Shown here: in pieces, positions 2,311 to 36,786 of the stretch
Numbering within the stretch: the stretch's first letter is position 1
Layout of the letters: each line of letters begins with the position of its first letter
IMG/VR virus record: IMGVR_UViG_3300045988_154156
DNA length: 64,000 bases
Strand: one strand, 5' to 3'
Origin: a virus
Made by a program: the position numbers and the translations under genes
The notes under the pieces: generated by a model
Seen by the model: only the letters and a program-made list of their open reading frames with translations
What the model was told of the DNA's origin: nothing
Database searches by the model: none

Positions 2311-3261
2311 ATGAATATTAGTTTAACCACTAATTGTAATAATCATTGCCCTTATTGTTTTTAGCAAAATATTCATAATTTAAATATGGAAATATCCATC
2401 GAAAATTATGAAAAAATTTTAAAATGGGGACAGGATTATGATAAAGAATATATCCAATTATTGGGTGGAGAACCTACTTTATATTTAAAATTGCCTGATA
2501 TATTTGAAATAACAAATAATTATAAAAAGAAAATAAGTATAATTACTAATTTATTAGGATATAAAGATAATATTGAATTAATAACTCATTGTAATAATAT
2601 AGGTAGTATATTAATTAATACTACTTATGATGATAATAAAAAAGAATTATTTTTATCTAATATGGAACTTATAAAAAATACTTCCTTTTATAAAAGTTTT
2701 AGTATTACTTTAATGCCTAATAAAATTAATAATATAAAATATATTAACCGAATACGAGAATTATCTTTATTATTTCCAATGATTACGGAATTAAGAATTG
2801 GTTTAATGACTCCTTGCCCTGACTAGGATGATTTTTTTATTTATAATTATTCAGAGGATATAATTTTTTTAATAAAAGAATTACAGGGATCTAATTTAAA
2901 TTATTTAACTTTTGATTGTAGTATTAATTTATGTGAATTAGATTTTTCATTATTTAAATTATTAGCTGAAAATTAGATAAATAATTTATTTATTAATTTA
3001 ATAAATGTCACTTGTCCTGGGCCATGTATAGATATTATGCCTAATTTAGATATAAAATATTGTTATTCTATGTCTAAATTTTTTCCAACTAAAAATATTA
3101 CAGATTTTAATAATTATACTGAAGCTTATAATTATTATAATTCTTTAAATAAAAAATATTAGATTAAAAATAATAAATGCTTAAATTGCATTAATTTCCC
3201 AATATTATGTTAGCCTTGTCCTAGTATAGATTAGGCATTATTAAAAATAGAAAAGAGATGA
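2311..3261 (+). CDS. Radical SAM enzyme with C-terminal Cys-rich SPASM/twitch-like domain (about 316 aa, about 6 in-frame TAG)
   Basis: N-terminal CNNHCPYC (CxxxCxxC) motif, then LLGGEPTL. C-terminal Cys clusters (CSINLCE…CPGPC…CLNCINFPILCQPC). Single frame with all interruptions TAG and a TGA terminator. Confidence 0.75.
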
Positions 3262-16232: not shown

Positions 16233-18476
16233 ATGATTTATATTATAAAGCGCAATGGCACAATTGTTTTATTTGATAAAAATAAAATTATTAATGCTAT
16301 TAATAAAGCATTTATTGAAGTTGATGGATAGCTTTATGAAAATGATACCGCTCAAGATATCGCTAATGATATTGAACGTCAAGTAAATTATTTCCCTGAT
16401 GGTAGTGTAGGGGTAGAAGATATCCAAGATTGGATTGAAGATTATTTGATGCGCTCTGAGCGTCGTGATGTAGCTCGTGCATATATTAGATATAGATATA
16501 AAAAAGAAGTTGCTCGTGAAAAGAAAGATGATTTTATTCAAGCCATTAGGAAAAAGCTTGATGGTAAAGATATTAAAAATCAAAATGCTAACGTTGATGA
16601 AGCATCATTTGGCGGACGTATTGGCGAAGCCAGCAGTGTAGTAACTAAACAATTAGCTTTAGATTATATCTTATCACCAATGGCAAGAGATAATCATTTA
16701 AATAATATGATTTATACTCATGATCTTGATGCTTATTATGTTGGTTCTCATAATTGTTTAAGTATTCCTTTTGATGATTTACTTGCTAATGGATTTAATA
16801 CTCGCTAGACAGATGTACGTCCAGCAGGTTCAGTAAATACAGCTTTTCAATTAGTGGCTGTTATTTTCCAAATTCAAAGTCTTTCTCAATTCGGCGGCGT
16901 TAGTGCCACTCATCTTGATTGGACTATGGTTCCTTATGTAAGAAAAAGTTTTTATAAACATTGGAAAGACGGAATGCGTTATATTGAAAAAGTTGATTCA
17001 TGTGGGAAAGCATCTAATCCAGAAAATTTATCTATTGCTGATAATGGATATTTAGAATTTGAAAAAGCATATAAATATGCTATGGATATGACTATTAAAG
17101 AAGTCCATCAAGCAGTAGAAGGTATGTATCATAATCTTAATACTTTACAATCTCGTTCAGGAAATTAGTTGCCATTTACCTCTATTAATTATGGTACTTG
17201 TACTCTTCCAGAAGGAAGAATGATTACTAAAGCACTTTTGGATGTATCTATTGAAGGTATTGGCAAATTACATAAAACTTCTATTTTCCCTTGCGGAATT
17301 TTTCAATGTATGAAGGGAGTTAACCGTGAACCAGGTGACCCAAATTACGATTTGTTTAAACTCGCATTATAGTCCACCGCCCAAAGATTATATCCCAACT
17401 ACGCGAATGTTGATTGGTCAGGGAATGCTGGATATGATATCAATGACCCACGCACCTATTTTTCTACAATGGGATGTAGAACAGCCAATGGATACGATAT
17501 TAACGGTTTCGGTCAGCTAAAAGATGGTCGTGGTAATATTTGCCCAGTAACTATTATTATGCCCACTTTAGCTATGGAAGCTAAAGAAATGGCAGATCAT
17601 CAATATTTTGAAGATGGTTTAGATGCTCAAAAAGAACAATATCGTTGCAGATGTTTTATGAATTTATTAGATCAAAAAATTAATGAAGCAAGAATTCAAT
17701 TGATGGAACGTTTTGACTGGATTTGCTCACAAGACCCAAAATCTGCAAAATTTATGTATGAAAATAATTTAATGGCAGGTTATATTCCAGAAGAAGGAAT
17801 TAGAAGTGCCCTTAAGCATGGTACATTAGCTATAGGATAGATTGGTTTAGCTGAAACTCTTCAAATTCTTATTGGATGCGATCATACTGATCCAAGAGGA
17901 ATGAAAATGGCAAAAAAGATTGAAGAATTATTTAAACAACGTTGTGCTGAATTTAAAGAAGAATATAAACTTAATTTTGGAGTATATTATACGCCAGCTG
18001 AAAATTTATGTTATACAGCAATGCAAAAATTCAAAGAAAAATACGGCATCATACCTAATGTTTCTGATAAAGAATTTTTCACTAATAGTATCCATGTTCC
18101 CGTATGGAAGAAAATTTCTCCCTTTGACAAAATTGATATTGAAAGTCAGTTAACAGGTTATTCTTCTGCTGGATGTATTACCTATGTAGAATTAGATTCT
18201 ACTGTAAAGCATAATATTGATGCTCTTGAACAAATTGTTAATTATGCTATGGATAAAGATATCCCTTATTTTGCAGTAAATGTGCCTAATGATACTTGCC
18301 TTAACTGCGGATATTGTGATGAATTTAATGATAAATGTCCTGAATGCGGTAGTACCAATATTCAATAGCTACGTCGTGTGACTGGTTATTTAACTGGAAA
18401 CTACAAAACTGCTTTTAACTATGGTAAACAAAAAGAAGTAGAAGCACGAGTAAAACATACGGGGTAGATGGAATGA
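16233..18476 (+). CDS. nrdD: Anaerobic ribonucleoside-triphosphate reductase NrdD (about 747 codons, about 7 in-frame TAG)
   Basis: ATP-cone at the N-terminus. C-terminal Zn-ribbon CLNCGYC…CPECG followed by the glycine-radical motif RRVTGYL. Five ORF fragments in one frame, all joined by TAG. RBS GGAGGA. Confidence 0.9.
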
Positions 18477-18820
18477 CACATTCAATTTATGATTTAGCAA
18501 ACTATTTTAATTAGCAACAAGGAAGAAAATATCCTTGTTCTAATTAGATAGTGATATGTGCTTATATAACTGATAATTCGCAAGAAGTTTACAATTATTT
18601 AGATAAAAATAATATTATACCAATCAGAATATCAAAAACTCGTATAGAATGGCAAGAAAATAATGAGCGATGGATATGGTTACCTATAACTTAGAATACC
18701 AGAGGTTATAGATTTTATAAAATAAAAATATCTAAAAATTATAATAATGAGGAAATATTAAAAACAATAATTATTCCTTATTGCAGCTTATATTGTTGTT
18801 CTTGGGAGGTTATGGAATGA
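18473..18820 (+). CDS. Hypothetical protein (about 115 aa, 3 TAG)
   Basis: ATG overlaps the nrdD TGA. Continuous frame to TGA at 18818. Confidence 0.4.
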
Positions 18821-19494
18821 ATTATTCTAAAAGACCTTTAAAAAAGCATTAGAAAATAAAAGATAAATTAGAAAAAGCTACTGAAGTATTAAATAAAAAA
18901 ATTGACTCGGAATTAGAGGCAATTATAAAAAAAATATTTTCTTGGATAGCTGATGATGAAAAGATTAATACAAAAGAACATCGAGATGATTTAATAAATT
19001 TATTTTATAAAGCTTTAGAAAATCTTTATTCTGAAATTAATATATAGTTAGGAAAGATTTATAAAACCGTAGCTCCTTTTAATTTAAAGGATATAACAGA
19101 TTTAACTTTTCAAGAAGATGGAAAAACATTAGATGAGCGAATTACTAAATATTTAGATGATTTAGAAGAAAAAAGATTATCTGGTGATTTTCCAGATAAT
19201 TTAAAAAGCTTTGGTGCTAATATGTATTCTCGTCTGTTAAATAATGAAGGTAGATATTTATTTACTCATTTAATGAAAATGAAAATAAAACCTGTAGCTT
19301 CAATACTTGTAATTGAAACAGGAACTTGCGATGATTTATGCGGTGAATGGAATGGAGAATACCCTGCAGAAGAAGATGTTCCTCTTCCTCCCTACCATAC
19401 TAATTGTTAGTGTTCTGCTTATTATATTGAAACTGATGATGAAGATGATGTTAATGACTTAGATTTAGAAGTGGAGGAAGCAAAAAATATATGA
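18817..19494 (+). CDS. Protein with a Phage-Mu-F-like C-terminal motif (…PLPPYHTNC(TAG)CSAYYIE…), 225 aa
   Basis: RBS GGGAGG. C-terminal PPxHxNCxC signature typical of MuF/SPP1 gp7-like domains. Unusual position between nrdD and nrdG. Confidence 0.45.
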
Positions 19495-19979
19495 AATATG
19501 CAGGAATTATAAAAAATGATATTGCCGCAGCACCTGGAGTATGTGTTTCATTCTTTGTTCAAGGTTGTCCTAATCATTGTAAAGGATGCCATAATCCTGA
19601 AACATGGGATTTTGATGGTGGTAAAGAATTTACGAGTGATATATTTACTGAAATTACTCAAGCATTATAGGCAAATGGTATTCATCGAAATTTTTGTATA
19701 ATGGGTGGCGAACCATTATGTGAACAAAATCAATTGCTTACTTTACTTTTGGTCCGTACTATAAAAGAAAAACTTCCTAATACAAAAATTTATGTATGGA
19801 CTGGATATTATTATGATGATTTAATTAAACAAAAAGATAATGGAAAACTTCAAGAAATTCTTAGCAGTATTGATGTCTTGATTGATGGTCCATATATCCA
19901 AGAGCAAAGAGATGTATCATTGCCTATGCGTGGAAGTAAAAATTAGCATATTATTAATTTAAATTCAAATAAAAATTGA
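19491..19979 (+). CDS. nrdG: Anaerobic RNR activating enzyme NrdG (radical SAM activase)
   Basis: CPNHCKGC cluster near the N-terminus and IMGGEPL. Overlaps the upstream stop (ATATGA). 1 TAG. True end is either TAG 19944 or TGA 19977. Confidence 0.85.
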
Positions 19980-25795: not shown

Positions 25796-26500
25796 ATTAT
25801 CATAGTTTCAATATGTATTTGTGATAGAGATGATTCACATGGATAGTCAATGATTACTATTATTAAAGATTATTTGTTTAAACATAATGTAATGGGAAGT
25901 ATAAATTATTTTAATAATGCTAAAGATTTATTAAGACAACCAATCTATGACGTCTATTTCTTAGATATTTTAATTAGAGATATGAATGGCATTGAGCTTG
26001 GAAAAATATTAAAACAAAAAAATGAAAAATGCGAAATAATTTATATAACTGATTAGCGTAATTATGGACCACAAACCTATGAAGTAAAGGCATTTAATTA
26101 TTTATTAAAACCTATAAATATAGAAGAAATAAATGATACTTTAGATAGATTATTTGAAAAAATTAAAAGTGAATATAGATATTTAAGAACTAAAGATGGG
26201 GAAGAAAGAATTCCACTTAAAGAATTATTATATGCTGATATTATAGGAAGAAATTTAACTTGTCATTTCTATGATGGTGAATTAATTCAAAGTACAACTT
26301 TAAAAAAATCTTTTGAAAAAATGATAGGTCCTTTAAAAGATAATCCAGATTTTGTCTTTGTTGCACCGAGTTTATTAATTAATTTAAATTATATTAGTTC
26401 AATGAACTTAAACTATTTAACTTTTACTACTGGTGAAGTATTATATTTCCCAAAGAGCGCGTATAAATTAATTTGTGAAAGATGGAAGCAATATAGTTAA
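25796..26500 (+). CDS. AgrA/ComE-like response regulator with C-terminal LytTR DNA-binding domain; the conserved N-terminus is encoded upstream of the first ATG (25850)
   Basis: Receiver-like MITIIKDYL…YFLDILIRDMNGIELGKIL aligns with AgrA. LytTR signature IPLKELLYADIIGRNLTCHF…FVFVAPSLLINLNYI. Upstream in-frame ICICDRDDSHG(TAG)SM matches the AgrA N-terminus IFICEDDPKQRENM, directly after RBS AAAGGAGGAG, with no AUG. Confidence 0.65.
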
Positions 26501-26948: not shown

Positions 26949-28010
26949 TTAAGGTGTTCCATAAATAGTACAAGTCATATCATATCTAGCGCTTGGACTA
27001 TTATTTAATAAAATTAATTCACAAAATTTTTGTGATGAAGTACTTGATTCATAACATCTACCAACAGCATAAATTCTCATTGTTCCTCCTGTTTGAGAAT
27101 AATTTAATAATTCTAAGGTAGATATACCATATAGGGTAGTTCTAGAACTATTTTCACAAACACAATATCCTTCAAAACCTTTTGATTTAATCTGTGCTAA
27201 AGTTACTCCGGAGGGATCCCCTCCTTTAAAAGATAACATATGATATGTTCCAGAGTTATAATCTGTATTAACTTTAATTGCAATAGAATAAATAGTAGAA
27301 GGTAATGCTCCTCCAAATGAAAAATTCAAATATCCTCCGTTACCATTACCTTCATTATAAAAGCTTGATACAGTTCCAGTATATAATTTAGCACTAGATA
27401 AAGTTCCAGTTACTCCAAAAATATTTACTCCTGATTTAATATTACTAGCAATTAAATTGCTGCTTCCAGATACAGTAATATTTCCAGTAGCATAAGAACC
27501 AGAAGCAATAGCAGTCTAAGAACTTGTGCTTGGAGTAATAGTTCTACCATTAACAGAAGGTATTGTTCCTGTTACTTTTACTCCAGAAGCAGAAGTAAAT
27601 GTTTTGCCAGTAAGTACATCGGCGGCAGTTGCATTACCAAAATCTGACTTTGGAAAAACACATCTTGTATGCGCTCCTGCTCTATATAATTTTGGATTAT
27701 TAAAAGGATATTTAACATAATAATATGTTGAATCCTAAGTTCTTAAATAATCAGATAATGAACCAGATTTTTGTTCATATCCTGTTACAATTGGTATTGT
27801 ACCTGTTATTTTTTCACCATTCACATAGGCTGTTTTACCTTGTCCAATATCTTCTGCAATGGCAGTTGCATCTGAAGTATCTATGCCTGTTTCAATATTT
27901 TGTATCAAATTAGGCATATCTTGAGCATTAATTTTATTAGACGTATTAGTTTTTTCTCTAATAGCATCTCCAATTCCTGTTAACAATTCAGGGACTGTAC
28001 TATAACTCAT
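26949..28010 (-). CDS. Tail fibre-like protein with TGTIP repeats (about 353 aa)
   Basis: ORFs 27735-28019 and 26949-27329 share a frame; repeats GEKITGTIPIV and VKVTGTIPSV; RBS GGAGGT. Confidence 0.5.
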
Positions 28011-29743
28011 TATTTCCATTTACCTCCTATCGCTGTAAATAATTCTATTTCTTTCCATTCATTATTTACTCCATAATATAATTTACATTCTTTCCACTCT
28101 TTATCTTTTCCAAAATAAATTTTTTTCTTAAAAACAGGATATAAATAAAGGTTACTCGGTTCGGTTCTAGTATATGTTGTATTAACTTTATAAGTTACTG
28201 TACTACTTCCTTTAGCTGTTGAATATCCTAAAAATTCACAACCTTCTAAATACTATTCATTTGGATAAATAGTAAAAGTTGCTGAAGAATAACAAGCATT
28301 ATTAGTATTAGATGACCATTTAGCATATAGCTAAGTAGCACCATTAGACATAATAAAATTAGTATCTGAAGTTGAATAACTACCTCCTGGAGTAAAATTT
28401 ACTCCACTTCCTGTATTTGTAGTATTCCAACTGGATAAAGTATAAGTAGTTTTAGGTTTATACTAAACATAATTAGTATGCAAAGGAGTAGTATTATCTG
28501 ACTTATATCTAATTATGGAATAGGTTGTTGTTTCCGATCCCCATACTGGTGATTTTGTAATAGAAGAAGATGATGGCATAGTAATAGTCTAAGCAATATT
28601 GTTATAATATGTTAAAGCATTAGCTGTACCACTACCTCCATTAAGATTAAATGATAAAGAAAAATACCAAATTCCATATAAACTTAAAGAATCCTAATCA
28701 GTAGATATCGTAGCTCCTTTAGCATATTTAGGAGTTGTTGCGTTTTTATTAGTACTCCATCCTTTGAATATAAAATTAGTAGGATTGGACCAAGTAGGTG
28801 GAGTCATTGTATTTGCTCCTGTATTTGTATAAGTCCCTAAAAGAGTGCCAGTATTATTATAAAATGACATAGTCCCTTTATAAGGGGTAAATGTTAATGT
28901 ATAAGGAATATAAGTAGATCCACTACCACTAAAAGCTAAATTAAGTGCTACATAATAAGTTCGACTACCTAAGAATTTTTCACTATATTTTACTTCACAG
29001 TCATATGATACGCTAGGATCCTTATCATCATTTTTCTCAGTATCATTATTATCATATACAAAAGATGCATCACGTGATTGCCCTGGAGCTCCTTGACTTG
29101 GTTCAGTTTTAGTAATATAGCCATAGGGATCTGGACTTTTACTTCCAATAGTAGTTGTAAAAGTAAGAGTTCCTCCACAAGGAACTGTTACATTAAAATA
29201 AGATGCTCTATAATAATATACTTGTATAGACCCACTATAACTTGAAGTATTTTCCGTATTTGTTATTCTTCGATCCGCAGAATAATGATAAGGAGCAATC
29301 CAAGAAGTATAAGTATCATTATAATCTCCATAAGGTGTATCATAATAATCTCTATAAGGTGTATCATCATAATCTCTATAAGGTGTATCATCATAATCTC
29401 TATAAGGTGTATCATTATAATCATTATATGAAGCAGGTGGATACTAAATATGGTCCTAATCAATGTCACCACCTATACCGTCCTATACAGAAGCTCCATA
29501 GGTAGTAGTGGTTGAAAGATTACGTCCTGAGAATGTAATAGTAACAGAACCAGAATTAGAATAAAATATTAATCCATTACGCCCACTAGTTAGAGAACCG
29601 CTAGACGCAGTAAAATTCGTAGTAGCACCTTGGTTAATTTTTGGATAAATATATATTTGACCACTAGAACAATTTCGCCATGATGCAAGAATTGTAATTG
29701 AACTTCCACTAGCTGACTATAAAGATACAGAAATTGAAGCCAT
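28010..29743 (-). CDS. Tail/structural protein (about 577 aa) carrying a 24-bp tandem repeat encoding (D-T-P-Y-R-D-Y-D)x3.5
   Basis: Strong RBS AAGGAAGGAGGA; continuous frame; tandem repeat at about 29330-29425; about 12 TAG. Confidence 0.55.
29330..29425 (-). repeat. Tandem 24-bp coding repeat (ATAAGGTGTATCATCATAATCTCT)x3.5 on +, encoding PYRDYDDT units
   Basis: Direct visual repeat; produces the spurious overlapping ORFs 29242-29505 (+) and 29263-29472 (-). Confidence 0.8.
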
Positions 29744-29746
29744 ATA

Positions 29747-30709
29747 TTATCCTCCTTCCTTATTTATAGAACTAAAAGCTAAACACCCGCCCTAACAAGA
29801 TAAATTATTAAATTTTTTACAATTTTTACATTTATCATTTTGTCCGTTAGCTTCTCTTTTAGGATAGATTGTTTTAAATAAAAAATAATTTGAAACTTCA
29901 TTAATATTATCAAACTAATGCAAATCTATTAAACCATAAGCGCCAAAACAACAAGTTGCTTTAAAATCCGGAGTAATATCTATAACTGGTTTACATAAAG
30001 TTTTCCAATGAATTACATTTTTTTTTAAAAAAGCTAAATCATCTTCTTTAAAATAACAAGCAGGTATCATATTACAATCAATGCGCAATTCAATATTATT
30101 TTTATAGGCTAACTAATTTAATTCTAATAATTGTGGGATACCATTATTGTAATATTCATCTTTATCTACTTGACTATATTGGCAAGTAGGAGCAGCATAA
30201 CTAATTCTTAAATTATTTTTTTTATATTTTTTACATAATTCAATTATATAATTAAAATCCTATAAATCTGGGTATATATTAATACCAAAATTAATTTGAT
30301 TTAATAGCTAATTTTTTTCAAAATTATTTAAAGTTTCTATAATACTATTATAATTACTTTCTGACATAGTATTTGGAGCATTCAAATTTATTAAACTAGA
30401 TAAAGCAGAATGATTTTTAAAACTATTTAAATATTTGTCTAAATAAATCCCATTAGAAAAAATAGTAACATTTTTTAAATCATATAATTTATCAAAACAA
30501 ATATCTATATATTCTGCTAGGCAGGGATGTAAAGTAGGTTCTCCTCCTATAATACCAATTCTATTACAAGGAGTCTAATCTAAAAAATCTAATATAGTTA
30601 ATAACTATTCCTTTGTTATAAGCTATTTTTCTTCCTCTGTAATAAATTTATTAGCAAAACAATATGGACACTATAAATTACAATAATTTAAAAATGCAAT
30701 ATTAGGCAT
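29747..30709 (-). CDS. Radical SAM / SPASM-domain protein (about 320 aa)
   Basis: N-terminal CNL(TAG)CPYC (CxxxCxxC) and GIIGGEPTL. C-terminal Cys clusters TCCFGAYG…CKNCKKFNNLSC(TAG)GGCLAF. Overlaps the upstream gene by 8 nt. Confidence 0.7.
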
Positions 30710-31976
30710 TATTTATTTTATCTCCTTCTAATTTTTTTATTTCTTTTAAATTAAAAAAATTATTTTCTATTAAAATTTGCTTTAAAATAGGATTTATATT
30801 ATCATATTTTAAATTAATATTTTTAATTAGATCGTATAAAATATCATATAATTTTTTATTAAAAATGCAATAATCTTCATTGAAAGATAATTTTCCTGTA
30901 GAAAAATATTCTTTTATACATCCACCATAACAAATATCATAATAATCACATTTTCCTTTACAATGTGTTAAAATTATATCATCAATTTTATTAATATAAT
31001 CCTAATAAGTTGGTAAAGATATTAATTCTTCAAAAGAATTAATATCTCTAATATTACAAAAAATATTTTCTTTATTAACATATCCACAATGAGTAATATC
31101 ACCATTAGGTAAAATTACTATCCATTTACCAACACAATAAGTTGTATAGCATTTCCCTCTACGGCCTAATAGACATTTAATACGATTTGTAATTCCTTGA
31201 TCTTCAATAGGATTGTCTGTATCATATATCCAATACCTAAAATATTCTGTAATTAATTCTAAATCTTCTTCATTATCAATATCTATTAGCATATTATTTG
31301 AATTACTATCTAATAATTTTATATCTTTAATAAAATTCCCCTAAAAGCCATGAACATTTAATGTTTTTAAATATTCATAATTTTCAATTAAATCTTTTAA
31401 ATGGGGTTTATCATACACACATATAAAACCTTTATGAGTATTTTTTAAAATAGGTTCCATGGCTAAAGTAGATTGTAGTCCTCTAGTCTCAGTATTATAT
31501 ATACCATTATATGAAAGTCCATATTTTATATGATATTTTTCAAGTAATGGTAATTTATCTTCTAATAAAATTCCATTACTTTGTAAAGAAATAGGAAAAT
31601 TTAAATTATATTTTTGTTTTTGCTCAGATAAATATATTAATAAATCTTCTGGCAATAATAAAGGTTCTCCACCATGCCAAGTAATTTCTCGAATATGAGA
31701 ACCAAATTTAGTAAGAATCTAATCTAATAGTTCTTTAGTTATAATCTAATCTTTATATTCATATCTAATAAACTAATTTTCACAATAAGGACAATTAGCA
31801 TTGCATTCATAAGAAGCATGTAATAAAATTAATACATTATCTATAGTATGAAATGACATATCATCTACTAACTATAAATCATCTAATTTAGATAATAATT
31901 CATTTTTATATTTAACTTTATAGGGCTAAATATGATTATACTTTAACCATAATTTTTTTTCTTCTTCGTATGTCAT
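30702..31976 (-). CDS. Radical SAM / SPASM-domain protein (about 424 aa)
   Basis: CNANCPYC motif and WHGGEPLL. C-terminal CKGKCDYYDICYGGC SPASM-like cluster. ORFs 31341-31655 and 31002-31292 in the same frame, joined by TAG. Confidence 0.7.
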
Positions 31977-31981
31977 AATTT

Positions 31982-32203
31982 TTATCCCTCATATCGAATC
32001 AAAATTTTTCCATTCACAACAGAAGGCATAGATTCAGAAGTTGGAGAAAAAATAAACATATCATTAGTTATAACTTCATTAGCTGATGTACCATTTGTGA
32101 CAGATTTTATTTTAGGGTTAGAGCTATTAATAGCACTTTTAAATAAATCAACACTATTATCATCATCAACATAAATTGCTCTTAATAATTTAGGCTCACT
32201 CAT
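31982..32203 (-). CDS. Small protein (73 aa) immediately upstream of the rSAM pair; candidate precursor or accessory protein
   Basis: Intact ORF; RBS GGAGGT; no TAG. Confidence 0.5.
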   Translation of the reverse strand: MSEPKLLRAIYVDDDNSVDLFKSAINSSNPKIKSVTNGTSANEVITNDMFIFSPTSESMPSVVNGKILIRYEG

Positions 32204-32216
32204 TTAATTTACCTCC

Positions 32217-32759
32217 TTAATAACTGTTATTCACTAAACCATTAACATAAGTATAAACTGCTCTTGCCGTTGGAACTTGACTATCTCCAGAACTTGAATT
32301 TATTACTGTGACTACTGGAAATGTAGTTCCTCCCGAGGATGATGAATCTCCATTATTATTACTAAGAGATAAATAAGGAAAACAAATAAAATTAAAAATA
32401 TCTCCAATTCTAGTCTTATAATTACTTCCCACTAAATTAATTTCAGTTTTATTTGTATTTAAAGTATAATTTTCCATTTTATTTAATAATAAACCATTCT
32501 AAAATACTAATAATTGTTTTTCATCAATTATTTCTATTGTATTAGGAATGGGAATAGTCTAAGTTATCTCTGATATAATTACTGTTTCATTTATTAAACT
32601 TTTATAAAATAATCCTTGAGAAATAGCTGTTTGTAGATCATAAGTAGAGCCGTTTATATCAATATAAACGGCTCTACCAAGAGTCTACGGGAAAATAGGA
32701 TTTTTATCATTATCATGCTATTCTGTGGTCTATAACAATTTAATATATTCTTCATTCAT
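32217..32759 (-). CDS. Hypothetical Ser/Gly-rich protein (about 180 aa)
   Basis: ATG overlaps the TGA of the upstream giant gene; 6 TAG; ends …AVYTYVNGLVNNSY*. Confidence 0.45.
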
Positions 32760-35700
32760 TTTGTGTTAGCCACCTTCCATTATAATTAACTTGAAAATCT
32801 TTAATTAATTTCCATTCATTATTTATTTTAACATAAGTATCTTTAATACGATACCATTCACCATTATCTTTTATATATTCATCAGTTGGGCCATCTAAAA
32901 CAGTAATAATTATAACTCCATCTCCATAATTACCAATTCGTGTATTTAACTAATCTGGCTATAGAATTTTTTCCTAACCAGTTTTAGAAATAGTATCTGA
33001 TAAATAATAATTTGGTGTTAATAAGCATCCAGAAGGATAATTAACCGCAGTAGAAGAAGTATAAACATAATTTGAACCGCCTCCACCGCCGCTACCCAAT
33101 TGGCTTGTATCAGTAGTGTAAGTTCCAGCACCGCCATACCAGCCACCACCACCAGCGCCAGAAACAACACCAATTCCAATAGCTCCACTTTTTATAGTTA
33201 TACCATTTCCACCAAATCCAAAGCCACCATAACAGTCTAATTGAGTAGAATAACTATTTGACTAAGTATCTTTTATCCAATTATTATTTACACCAGTTTG
33301 ATTTCCACCATAACCACCACTAGTAGTACCACTATTATATAAAGTAGCATTTAAACCTCCACCAGCACCGCCTTGGTATCCTTTATATCCACCTTCTGAA
33401 CCGCCACCGCCAGCGACTATTACTCTAGCATAAAGAGAATTAGAACCAATTCTTATATCAGTTCCTCCACCACCAGCAGGATAATTTTGACGTTTTCCAC
33501 CGCCATTGAATCCTCCAGCAATACCAGATCCTCCTACTCCAAACCATATAGGAGTAGTTTTAGTTAAAGTTAATACGCCAGATGTATAACCACCTCTATT
33601 ATTTCCAGTACTATTATCGCTATAATAATTTCCAGAAGCAATTCCACCTTGAGCACCCCAGCATTCTAGTTTATAACGTCCAGGAGGAAATGAAAATGGT
33701 CCTATTACTGCGCCATTTGGCGTTTCAAAATTGCCCATAAAAGTACTAGTCTAAGGAATAATAATCTATTTTCCCTTTTTAATAACACAATTATAAGGAG
33801 ATGAAATTACTTTAACTACGATACTTTTTGAGATATGCGCATAATTGCTATCATTATTATTATTTACAGTAATCGTAGCACGACCAATTTTATTAGCTTG
33901 TACAGTAATCCCTCGACCTTGATTATCACCAGCAATTAAATCTCCTATTGATACTATTGTATTATCATCTGATGCAAATGATAAGTTACTATAATTACCA
34001 TTATACAATACTGCTAAATTAACAGAATTTTCAACAACAATATAATGAGGATCCTAAATCTATAAATATGAAGTAGCAGGATTTATCTGCCACTCTATAG
34101 TTTTATTGCTAGTTGTTCCATCTGACCATTTAGTATTTGTAGTATCTATTAAAGAAAGAACCGTTGTATAATTTCCTGCATTAGAAGCTGAAGTTGTTCC
34201 ACCATTTATTGAATAAAGAATATCATAATCAGAATTATCATATAATATATCGCTAGCAAAATACCATGTATTTCCATTATATTGAATAGTTGTCTAAGGT
34301 TCAGGGATTAACACTGGAGTATATGATAAATTCTCATAAGTCATTGTAAAATATGGAATTCGTTTTGTTAAGCCAGAAATCTAAGTCTAATCTGGACTAT
34401 AACAATACATATATATTAAATCTCCAGCTTTTAAAGCAACCTCAAAAGATACAGTTCTTTGTTCCTAAGTAATATAATAATACTAAAAATTATTTCCATT
34501 TATCTATATACTAAATTGACTCATCCAATAAGAACCTATATCATCAAGATTTACTTCTGCCCCAAAAGTAAATTTAATTTTTACATTTTTCTTTACTCTG
34601 CCTCGATAATAAGCATAAAAACCAGTAAGAGGAGTTTTATTAGTTTCATATCTAGATGTATTAGAATTATAATAAAAACAATTATCATAATCACTAATAT
34701 TTTCAACACCTTCATCAACATTTAACTAAGTAATACGCACATAACCAGTACCATTATGTCCCGTTTCAGATGAACCTGTTGGAGAAGTAAATGAAACATT
34801 TCCTCCGATAGTCTAAGCATTTTCAAGATAATATTTACTATCTAATAAACATCCAGATGGATAACTAGTAGCAGTTGATGAAGTATATACATAACCGCTA
34901 CCTCCTCCGCCGCCTTGATTATCAGCTCCAGTTCCAGAAGAAGGTGGAGAAGTTAAATTGGAAACAGTTAAACCACCATACCAGCCGCCGCCACCGCCAC
35001 CACCATCATAAGCATGACGTCCTTGACCAAAACCTCCTCCTGAAGTTTGACTTCCTCCAGCAGCACCACCAGTACCACCTGATAGTCCTCCGCCATAACC
35101 GACTGAATCACCACTATCTTCTCCGCCACCTCCGCCGCCACCGGCCACAATCACACGAGCATAAAGAGAAGTAGAATTGATACGAATATCAGAAGCACCA
35201 CCACCGCCACATCCTGGTTCTGAGCTACCAGATCCCCAAGCTGATCCACCACCATTATATCCTCCTGAAGACAAAGATCCATATCCAACAGCTCCAATTC
35301 CACCACTATAGCAATGTAATGTAGTAGGTCTTAATAAAGTAAGATTACCATAAGAATACCCTCCTAGTCCTCCAAGACCTGCGGCTGAATTACCATCTTG
35401 TTGTCCTCCTCCTCGAGCACCCCAACATTCTAATTTATATTTACCAGGATTAAATTTTTTGCTATAAGATCCTGAACCGGAAATATTTAAATCATTAGAA
35501 ACATATCCAATTGATAAAACAGTAATGCGTACATAGCCATTACCACTATGACCAGTTTCAGAAGCACCAGTAGGTGAAGTGAATGATGTATTACCAGCAA
35601 TAGTATTTCCACTTGTTAAATCGTATTCATTTTGGTATACGTTAAAGCTATAATATCCGCTGCCGCCTGCATTTTGTTCTCGATAAGTACTATCATTATC

Positions 35701-36786
35701 ATTATAGCCAGTCTAGGCACCACCGCCATACCAGCCACCGCCGCCTCCTCCAGCTCCGTATCTATAATTAGTGCCCTAAGTAGTACTTGCTCCTTGACCA
35801 AATGCTCCTCCACTACCTGCTTCATATCGAGTAGAACGATATGTACTATTATTACAATAGCCAGTCGCTCCTCCACCATATTTTAAATCATCATGTAATC
35901 CTGCGGCTCCACCACCACCGCCAGCAACAACTACTCGCTAATTATAAGAATCTGTTCCAATACGAATATCAGAAGCGCCACCACCACCGCCGCCAGAAGT
36001 ATAAATATCCTACCACCAACGACGTCCGCCAGATCCGCCACCATTAAATCCACCAGCATTAGTTCCTCTATCAGTACTGTGAGATGATTGTCCTTGGCCG
36101 CCAGCATAACAATATAAAGTAGTATGAGCCTACTTTAAAATAGCTATCTAATAACTGTATCCGCCTTTGCCACCATCATAAGTTGGAAAAACACTAAAAT
36201 TAGCCTAATCATATGACGGAGAACCTCTAGTAATTGTAACTGCAACACTTTCGCCAGAAACAGAAGCACTGCTATCTTTAGTATAGGTCATCATTACTTC
36301 ATCATCTACATTTAAATACTTAGAATAAGTACCATTATTAGTACCGCTTACAGCACTTACGACTGTAGTTCCACCCACTGTTAAAGTAAATTTATCAAAA
36401 TTCTATTCTGTTGTATATGAATATACAAACTAATAATAACCCGCTGTTACACAAGTTAAAATTGTCTGAGCAGTACTACTATCCACAGCTAGATTATTAG
36501 CAGACCAAGTTCCATTAGTATCTGGAACAAAATGATAACTTGAAATAGCTCTAGAAAAATAAGTAGAAAAATTATTAGAAGTAATATTTGTATTATAATT
36601 TATACTACTTGGATTATTGGTACTAGTATAACCAGTTCCTCCTTGAGCACCCCAGCATTCAAATTTATACTATCCAGCAGGTAATTGAACAATTTTTTTG
36701 TTTCCGCTATAAGGACAATTTAATATGTCTCCTGCTCTTAAAAGATAATACTTTGGAATCGAAGAAGTTAAATCATATGTTGCCAT
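32752..36786 (-). CDS. Giant glycine-rich tail fibre/adhesin (about 1,344 aa) built from 4-5 repeats of a poly-Gly module (…KxECWGAQGG…ASDIRI…YARVIVAGGGGG…GGGWYGG…SGYVYTSS…YPSGCLL…ETGHNGNGYVRITV)
   Basis: All long minus-strand ORF fragments (33262-33738, 33766-34008, 34813-35274) are in one frame with ATG 36786 and TGA 32752-32754. Repeated motif blocks were read directly. GC-rich GGN codon runs generate spurious ORFs in other frames. Confidence 0.55.

Follow-up and report, generated by a model that had tools for sequence, protein, structure and literature searches.

The genome fragment IMGVR_UViG_3300045988_154156 of IMG/VR, a gut-phage stretch of 64,000 nucleotides referred to here as the window, carries two adjacent radical S-adenosylmethionine (SAM) genes beside a protein with a Tyr-rich repeat, which raises the question of what these enzymes modify. 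All genes concerned lie on the minus strand: an open reading frame (ORF) of 73 amino acids (31982-32203) that ends 5 nt before the next gene; rSAM-A (30702-31976, 424 aa, radical SAM/SPASM; hereafter A); rSAM-B (29747-30709, 320 aa, a radical SAM protein with a non-canonical SPASM-like C-terminal domain; hereafter B), which overlaps A by 8 nt; and, 3 nt further on, the gene of a 577-aa fiber/adhesin-like protein (28010-29743), the candidate substrate. Residues ~106-145 of this protein form a Tyr-repeat tract encoded by a 24-bp tandem repeat (29309-29428), which is the putative modification site. The sequence-only reading of the window had placed these four genes and the A/B overlap at the same coordinates, which stand once TAG is read as a sense codon. 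It had also proposed that SPASM enzymes act here on a repeated motif of a virion protein, and this is supported by sequence, by structure prediction and, above all, by comparative genomics. Taken as a whole, the explanation that A and B modify the Tyr tract of the adjacent late fiber/adhesin-type virion protein is probable. That the tract is the substrate of the enzymes is, on the comparative genomics, very likely, while a radical crosslink chemistry of the tract, probably Tyr-to-Cβ, is proposed tentatively by analogy with characterized enzymes.

No relative was found among GenBank phages by tblastn with A or by megablast with 24 kb of the window, and a scan of IMG/VR with single-sequence patterns gave no match; profile-derived patterns alone succeeded. 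With such patterns for A and B, about 300 further loci were gathered and scored with hidden Markov models (HMMs) of A, B and a third family, C, the genetic code of each locus being chosen by HMM score. Metagenomic homologs of A occur on contigs of up to 168 kb. Seven further lineages share 35-41% identity in A and comprise TAG-recoded as well as standard-code phages; in all of them A lies next to B, while the other neighbors differ. The radical SAM genes of these lineages usually lie near tail-fiber, leucine-rich repeat, Mtd or tape-measure genes.

A scan of all neighbors for Tyr/Asp repeats revealed a protein with a hyper-tyrosine tract abutting the radical SAM genes in every distant locus, with up to 20 Tyr per 40 residues (for example YGNYSNYSDYYNYYNYSN). 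The tract gene is inside the module in all complete loci of the A+B clade, and the tract outliers among 248 proteins were exactly the module-adjacent ones; in the window the top outlier is the 577-aa protein, with 12 Tyr in 40 residues. A diverged phage clade (L098-101) carries, directly upstream of B, a protein with about 20 copies of a 13-residue NTGY-x-x-Y-S-D-H/W unit. Also, in an independent standard-code clade that has B without A, a Tyr-tract ORF is located 0-155 bp upstream of B or, alternatively, a small Tyr-rich ORF is located 0.5-1.1 kb downstream of it. After dereplication by inspection, a same-strand tract ORF is located no more than 2.5 kb away in about 14 of the 22 B lineages (binomial P=2e-12, given a background of 0.0123 tracts per kb in 2.85 Mb of control loci). 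Across phages, the enzyme most tightly tied to Tyr tracts is B, not A.

The proteins that carry the tracts fall, after masking of the tracts, into at least seven classes without detectable homology to one another, including Ig-like, FN3-like, Listeria-Bacteroides-repeat and Cys-rich types. The association of tract and enzymes is therefore not inherited with one gene, and it is the tract, rather than its carrier, that travels with the enzymes. Phages with the module are TAG-recoded, TGA-recoded (L095/L256, IMG/VR UViG_3300033463_000007, with the same radical SAM module) or use the standard code, so that the module crosses three genetic codes. Many A+B loci add family C, which is a true radical SAM enzyme in some of them and has lost the SAM-cluster cysteines in others. 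Of 8 lineages containing C, 7 show the motif [LI]-S-x-W-L-x-[ED]-x-[IV]-[DN] at the N-terminus (L007 has a degenerate form), against none of 6 without C; in the C-lineage carriers this leader-like LS-x-WL-x-E-x-ID element sits just upstream of the tract. The window has no family C and, in a six-frame motif search, no shared leader motif, its 577-aa carrier being leaderless.

Two further elements were observed. Directly downstream of B, a conserved Cys-rich protein (NNGCH-x2-C-x3-C...) is present in L004 (7222-7854) and L013 (6985-7995) and absent from the window; it may be an accessory component of larger modules. Also, several bacterial or environmental loci (L029, L033, L047, L035, L212 from a Nitrospirae metagenome-assembled genome and L203 from an Acidobacteriaceae one) encode a small protein of 115-150 aa with an N-terminus resembling a twin-arginine translocation (TAT) signal and a Tyr/Ser/Gly-rich tail (for example YYSWYSSYGSYYSSFYSSYYSSY), followed in order by a B-like and an A-like radical SAM/SPASM gene. 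No NCBIfam model names the bacterial Tyr-rich protein or either of its enzymes, and this system is possibly an ancestral, secreted-protein version of the phage one, equally uncharacterized.

Two loci act as natural knock-outs. L322 and L323 are syntenic with the window, with a holin 99% identical, a protein of ~345 aa (356 aa in the window) at 44-79% identity, a 180-aa protein at 66-68% and the 73-aa ORF at 71-74%, arranged in the order Gly-rich fiber, 180-aa protein, 73-aa ORF, fiber ortholog, ~345-aa protein and holin, with a response regulator in L322. Neither locus has a match to the HMMs of A, B or C, and the 73-aa ORF directly abuts the fiber gene at the slot occupied by A and B in the window. 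Their more distant orthologs of the 577-aa protein (P0163 in L322 and P0162 in L323) have no tract: they align to it at residues 1-92 and 172-577, and residues ~93-171 are replaced by an unrelated module. Enzymes and tract are thus acquired or lost jointly, while the rest of the locus stays conserved.

These loci also bear on the 73-aa ORF, which the sequence-only reading had offered as a possible small precursor. Its homologs are found only in the close or syntenic relatives of the window (L001-L003, L322 and L323), it contains only 2 Tyr, so that it is not Tyr-rich, and it is retained in L322 and L323 where A and B are absent. This persistence without the enzymes indicates that the 73-aa ORF is not the precursor, and this part of the earlier proposal was abandoned.

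The 577-aa protein consists of an N-terminal domain (residues 1-~92), the Tyr tract and C-terminal degenerate Listeria-Bacteroides-type repeats (F-x-GW...LYAKW), and its distant homologs carry PF09479. The tract reads YNDYNDTP YRDYDDTP YRDYDDTP YRDYYDTP YGDYNDTY, that is, four Y-[R/G]-D units with flanking Y-N-D. Tandem Repeats Finder reports a period of 24 with 4.6 copies and 95% matches (29313-29422), and the repeat is perfect over 71 nt (29345-29415), a length of which shuffled sequences reach at most 13 nt. The 24-bp repeat encoding (D-T-P-Y-R-D-Y-D)n is in this way confirmed, with about three perfect copies and not the 3.5 first claimed. Strain variants retain the array (SDTPYRDY, NDTPYGDY), and in close relatives it is remade from 8-aa into 6-aa units (VPYGDY, NPYNDY), P-Y-x-D-Y being kept through all these changes of unit. 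The conserved element is Y-x-[D/N](-Y) and not the 8-residue unit. Accordingly, the idea that a short repeated motif is targeted holds insofar as Tyr repeats recur beside the enzymes, but not for the 8-residue unit itself.

Patterns within the tracts covary with enzyme content. Where A is present, 95 of 185 Tyr-to-Tyr intervals have a spacing of 3, and 112 of 196 Tyr are followed two positions on by N or D, so that these tracts are in-register (Y-x-[N/D])n arrays in the Ω1-X2-X3 format of the triceptides. In triceptides, a three-residue cyclophane-forming enzyme (3-CyFE) joins an aromatic ring to the Cβ of residue 3 (PMC12912966; PMC11499958), and the native motif of one such enzyme, ChlB, is Y-D-R (PMC11499958). 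In contrast, tracts associated with B only extend over 130-290 residues with 33% Tyr, and are dominated by a spacing of 2 (Y-x-Y) with no preference for N or D.

Enzyme A has the attributes of a SPASM-type radical SAM protein. It matches PF04055 (1.3e-13, 51.9 bits against a gathering cutoff of 29.5) and passes the SPASM model TIGR04085 (30.1 bits, cutoff 27), with PF13186 below its cutoff (15.2 against 21.5 bits). A SPASM protein was taken to be one with an HMM score above cutoff and the 7-Cys arrangement CX9-15GX4C ... CX2CX5CX3C ... C, which binds two auxiliary [4Fe-4S] clusters. The C58-X3-C62-X2-C65 motif of A, of the type that binds the SAM-cleaving [4Fe-4S] cluster, is invariant across 31 homologs with identities down to 23%, and in alignments of 23-31 homologs all eight auxiliary cysteines (C276, C281-X10-G-X4-C297, C339-X2-3-C343-X5-C349-X3-C353 and C370) are invariant. 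Against the Protein Data Bank (PDB), the family profile finds the anaerobic sulfatase-maturating enzyme (anSME) 4K36 over its full length (E=4e-43). AlphaFold2 (AF2) models were computed from alignments headed by database proteins: P0001, which shares 98% identity with A, and P0040, which matches B at 100%. Both of these, like P0161, occur in animal-gut metagenomes. The model of A (pLDDT 87) has as best Foldseek matches anSME 4K37 and ChlB 9GM3 (TM 0.72-0.74), followed by CteB, TigE and SuiB. These fold matches agree with the assignment of A as a SPASM-type enzyme and place it in the anSME/3-CyFE/daropeptide-maturase structural class.

Enzyme B is the more divergent of the two. PF04055 is matched at 2.9e-13 (50.7 bits, cutoff 29.5), and 30 homologs share an invariant C10-X3-C14-X2-C17 motif and the invariant extra cysteines C212, C218, C239, C254 and C294-X2-C297-X7-C305-X3-C309, in which C239-X14-C254 and a CX2CX7CX3C variant make up a SPASM-like layout. 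The SPASM HMMs (TIGR04085/PF13186) did not match. The sole full-length sequence match in the PDB is anSME (1e-7), and the AF2 model (pLDDT 90) best resembles ChlB 9GMC (TMq 0.66-0.68), then CteB, anSME and SuiB, the fold match to the SPASM enzymes ChlB, CteB and anSME spanning ~350 columns. The N-terminus resembles MoaA and viperin. Among the best 25 families listed for B, anSME (TIGR03942) does not appear, nor do the triceptide-maturase families XyeB, GrrM/OscB, FxsB, YhhB and AmcB among the matches listed. That B is SPASM-type is suggested by its eight invariant extra cysteines and its predicted fold but not by the SPASM HMMs. With 617 cluster representatives (50%-identity clusters) at E<=1e-30, B represents a large family. 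Both proteins score far below the cutoff of 260 for QueE (TIGR03963/TIGR03365), A with 22.9 bits confined to the N-terminal cluster region and B with 32.9 bits, and QueE ranks 38th or lower in the fold search with B. A role in 7-deazaguanine synthesis was rejected on these scores, and the auxiliary cysteines, whose absence the sequence-only reading had named as a refutation, are present in both proteins, in a SPASM layout in A and a SPASM-like one in B.

How these enzymes would act can be outlined as follows. In the cytoplasm of the anaerobic host, before assembly, a 5'-deoxyadenosyl radical would abstract a hydrogen, and a carbon-carbon (or carbon-oxygen) crosslink of the Tyr ring would then form. 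A may form a three-residue cyclophane from Tyr (Ω1) to the Cβ of Asp/Asn (X3) in each Y-x-[D/N] unit; B would be the universal, Tyr-directed component; and C, often catalytically dead, may recognize the leader-like motif. These three proposed roles derive from the differences in tract grammar and from the co-occurrence of C with the motif, and the window would represent a minimal A+B version with a leaderless carrier. The product would not be excised but, unlike in a RiPP (a peptide made on ribosomes and modified after translation), the modified tract would remain part of the full-length structural protein, where it would plausibly form a rigid segment resistant to proteases. How A and B share the work, and what the virion gains, is likewise inferred.

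More broadly, the loci could be read as a toolkit that moves between phages and comprises one to four radical SAM/SPASM enzymes, in which a hyper-Tyr tract grafted onto unrelated virion proteins (tail, fiber or decoration proteins) receives RiPP-type crosslinks, whether Tyr-to-Cβ cyclophanes, Tyr-Tyr links or both; we regard this as close to evenly balanced, short of a preference. The data suggest that phages infecting anaerobes alter the chemistry of their own virion proteins, in a manner undescribed so far.

Several observations weigh against modification of a virion-protein tract by A and B. About 8 of the 22 B lineages have no tract at the threshold used, including bacterial chromosomal loci of Dehalobacter (L176-178), and in L095 the tract gene lies ~7.8 kb from B. 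The 577-aa protein has no match in PHROGs, and its presumed place in the virion follows from operon position and domain type only. In NCBIfam, neither A nor B reaches the curated cutoff of any characterized maturase family: A scores 73.8 bits with the anSME model TIGR03942, under the equivalog cutoff of 349.45, and 33-46 bits with the triceptide maturases/3-CyFEs (TIGR04496 XyeB, TIGR04261 GrrM/OscB, TIGR04269 FxsB, NF041707 YhhB and NF041718 AmcB), whose cutoffs are 310-450. The known substrates of triceptide maturases are short peptides of leader and core that undergo cleavage, whereas here the carrier is a 577-aa protein. Finally, Tyr-rich low-complexity tracts could be purely structural.

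Among the alternatives, the one that survives best keeps the Tyr tract as substrate and changes the chemistry, to Tyr-Tyr linkage (Ω1-X2-Ω3, a daropeptide-like ether or C-C bond), L-to-D epimerization, β-hydroxylation or oxidation of Asp/Asn/Ser, or crosslinks joining the chains of separate fiber subunits; jointly these are unlikely, yet they carry more weight than any other competing explanation. The B-only tracts, rich in Y-x-Y and without N/D at +2, speak for it and show that B at least is independent of the Y-x-[N/D] motif. So does the spread of fold likeness over anSME (an oxidase), CteB (thioether), TigE and SuiB, and more weakly EpeE (an epimerase), as well as the scores of A, which are on par for DynA/DarE-type and cyclophane-synthase models. 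Thioether chemistry, however, is excluded for most tracts by their lack of Cys, the period-3 Y-x-[N/D] register linked to A is the exact triceptide format (PMC12912966, PMC11499958), and the best structural neighbor of both enzymes is a Tyr cyclophane synthase.

Excision of the tract as a RiPP-like core, to be released as a toxin, signal or redox cofactor, is improbable. Tyr-derived cofactors are made from peptides by PqqE and MftC, the C-lineage carriers start with the leader-like motif before the tract, and the bacterial relatives pair their 115-150 aa TAT-signal Tyr/Ser-rich proteins with B-like and A-like enzymes, all of which would agree with a released product. However, no protease, transporter or tailoring gene is conserved in the phage modules, and the absence of such genes, exporters included, points to the modified protein as the end product and not a RiPP precursor. 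The tract moreover has an internal position, and the 100-430 residues after it form domains of Ig-like, FN3-like or Listeria-Bacteroides type, which are typical of virion surface proteins; the gene lies in a late structural operon before the holin, and the window carrier has no leader motif.

Still weaker is the case for a non-protein substrate (a nucleotide, DNA base, glycan or cofactor) with an incidental or regulatory adjacency of the Tyr tract, which we consider very improbable. Phage radical SAM enzymes are known in 7-deazaguanine and thymidine hypermodification, the N-terminus of B is MoaA/viperin-like, and in L005 NeuB, a CMP-transferase, MetK and another radical SAM-SPASM gene are encoded a few kb downstream. 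But the QueE, MoaA and viperin matches are restricted to the N-terminal cluster region, 5-10 times below cutoff, all full-length sequence and fold matches are to peptide- or protein-modifying SPASM enzymes, and the L005 sugar genes are not conserved in the other loci, for which reason a link to a sugar or nonulosonic-acid pathway was discarded. Nor can incidental adjacency explain the co-loss in syntenic genomes or the occurrence of at least seven unrelated carriers. As an observation on its own, the cluster of L005 (15033-18732) and L006 encodes, a few kb downstream of the module, a CMP-sugar transferase-like protein, a cupin/mannose-6-phosphate isomerase, NeuB, a 267-aa radical SAM-SPASM protein and, just before a GH25 lysin, MetK, a possible nonulosonic-acid pathway and SAM supply within the phage. 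Lastly, that A is an anSME producing formylglycine in a phage or host sulfatase, with DTPYR mimicking C/S-x-P-x-R, can practically be dismissed: anSME is the best sequence match of A in NCBIfam and the PDB and D-T-P-Y-R superficially fits x-T-P-x-R, but the score of 73.8 bits falls short of the equivalog cutoff of 349, none of the window genes examined or annotated was found to be a sulfatase, the target residue is Asp and not Cys/Ser, and close relatives (VPYGDY, NPYNDY) have lost Pro-x-Arg, which no other tract contains.

The gene models of the window hold once TAG is read as glutamine. The four ORFs are open at their coordinates only with TAG as a sense codon; the internal stops are all TAG (7, 9, 9 and 0 in the four genes, with seven in A and nine in B), and TAA terminates each gene. 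Under the standard bacterial code the region is broken into short ORFs, while with TAG as a sense codon the summed length of the window's long ORFs almost doubles, and an orderly minus-strand late operon emerges between ~22.7 kb and 63.4 kb. Residue 306 of B, encoded by TAG, occupies an alignment column that is invariantly Q in 30 homologs, standard-code phages included; the TAG at residue 68 of A lies opposite Q in standard-code homologs; and the translation of B with TAG as Q is 100% identical to the database protein P0040. Sequence comparison in this way supports TAG as Gln in the window. No suppressor tRNA was found within the 64-kb window. TAG is commonest in late genes, with 39 in a 2591-aa gene, and scarce in several early genes.

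With the 8-nt overlap and the 3-5 nt gaps, the genes of the module are translationally coupled. Upstream lie a tail protein (phrog_1887), the 2591-aa protein and a Gly-rich protein of 1344 aa, and downstream a 356-aa protein is followed by the holin (phrog_13712, 6e-35), so that the module occupies the distal end of the late operon. The description of the enzyme pair as lying between giant tail-fiber genes is correct for the upstream side, where giant fiber-like genes are found, but downstream there are only the 356-aa protein and the holin. The 1344-aa protein (32752-36786, minus strand; 33262-33738) has three copies of a Gly-rich domain with the motif ECWGAQGG..., corresponding to PF12810 (ALK_LTK_GRD), the match to which was found on its orthologs of the same length in L002 and L003. 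The ALK_LTK_GRD glycine-rich domain is rare except in animal receptor kinases and some phage fibers.

The phage also encodes, on the plus strand (window 16233-19979), NrdD, an anaerobic ribonucleotide reductase of 747 aa that includes an ATP-cone (5e-144), together with the 162-aa activase NrdG, which indicates an obligately or facultatively anaerobic host. With these genes the phage replicates under anoxia, where radical SAM chemistry works and O2-dependent Tyr crosslinking cannot. Four radical SAM enzymes are encoded in the window in total. The third radical SAM gene (2311-3261, plus strand, 316 aa, with six TAG codons; PF04055 3e-13) is a distant paralog of B, 23-26% identical to the B of other phages. 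Its place is in the early replication module, where an AAA_24 ATPase gene flanks it on one side and those of DnaB helicase, primase and RecJ on the other; beside it no Tyr-tract gene is obvious, and the adjacent 175-aa protein is moderately Tyr-rich (10.9%). On the plus strand, adjoining the holin and opposite to it in orientation, is a 216-aa protein with a response-regulator receiver domain (25850-26500, PF00072 7e-12) and a C-terminal part that is LytTR-like by eye, and it is kept in the syntenic relative L322. Its position by the lysis cassette suggests that the phage listens in on a two-component or quorum signal of its host.

If the proposed modification is correct, a virus particle would for the first time be known to bear radical crosslinks installed by enzymes, and phage assembly would gain a new kind of post-translational maturation. 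The crosslinks would constitute an O2-independent counterpart of oxidative dityrosine hardening, giving phages of strict anaerobes a route to harden or rigidify receptor-binding structures without oxygen, and would extend radical SAM peptide crosslinking, a RiPP chemistry, from small secreted natural products to full-length structural proteins of the virion. Such a system would account for hundreds of unannotated phage radical SAM genes and for the hyper-tyrosine tracts in gut-phage tail proteins. Also, enzymes that tolerate large proteins, together with portable Y-x-D/N tags, would be attractive for protein stapling. No description of radical SAM/SPASM maturation of a phage tail or virion was found in the open-access literature, and none in the curated families, in agreement with the view that the system is undescribed for phage tail fibers.

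Among characterized systems, the triceptide maturases ChlB and MicB are radical SAM/SPASM enzymes without a separate RiPP recognition element domain, as are A and B, and act on repeated Ω1-X2-X3 targets with an aromatic residue that may be Tyr (Y-D-R for ChlB, Y-S-K for MicB), much like the A-linked tracts. ChlB is the best structural neighbor of B and the co-best of A (TM 0.66-0.74). In contrast, the sequence scores obtained here are far below every curated cutoff, the candidate substrate is an internal or C-terminal tract of a multidomain protein of 226-675 aa, no protease or exporter is conserved, each module has two or three radical SAM enzymes and is phage-encoded, and the crosslink is proposed by analogy. 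Daropeptide maturases (DarE, DynA, DarW) and 3-CyFEs form one SPASM clade (PMC12912966). DynA is the top NCBIfam match of the Tier-2 and bacterial A-like enzymes (138-146 bits, below cutoffs of 450-650), and the Ω1-X2-Ω3 links between aromatics made by these maturases resemble the Y-x-Y of B-only tracts; their products, however, are Trp-based heptapeptide antibiotics released from precursors, and not Tyr tracts in virion proteins.

Similarly, the His-Xaa-Ser system (HxsA with HxsB/HxsC) places a period-3 (aromatic-x-small)n repeat beside two radical SAM enzymes, a larger SPASM protein and a smaller one. The matches to HxsB (TIGR03978) and HxsC (TIGR03977) are weak and N-terminal (21-26 bits against cutoffs of 268-370), and the present system differs in having Tyr instead of His, no HxsD and a phage structural protein as carrier. 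With respect to full-length substrates, anSME (PDB 4K36-4K39) is, among solved structures, the nearest to A in sequence and the co-best by fold, holds three [4Fe-4S] clusters with the same Cys layout as A, and modifies a full-length folded protein rather than a RiPP, as an anaerobic substitute for an O2-dependent enzyme; here, by comparison, Tyr and Asp/Asn are conserved, there is no C/S-x-P-x-R motif and no sulfatase was found. QhpD provides a radical SAM/SPASM precedent for multiple intraprotein crosslinks in a subunit kept in the final assembly, but it forms Cys-to-Asp/Glu thioethers in the biogenesis of a bacterial periplasmic enzyme, and the likeness goes no further than a distant SPASM-domain match to TIGR03906 by the bacterial A-like enzyme (57 bits, cutoff 453). 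A and B are new subfamilies in the anSME/3-CyFE/daropeptide-maturase part of the SPASM enzymes. The action of radical SAM enzymes on a repeated aromatic-x-x motif is known already from triceptides and the His-Xaa-Ser system, and modification of full-length proteins from anSME and QhpD; what appears to be new is a hyper-Tyr tract substrate in multidomain virion-type proteins, the phage context and the multi-radical-SAM module.

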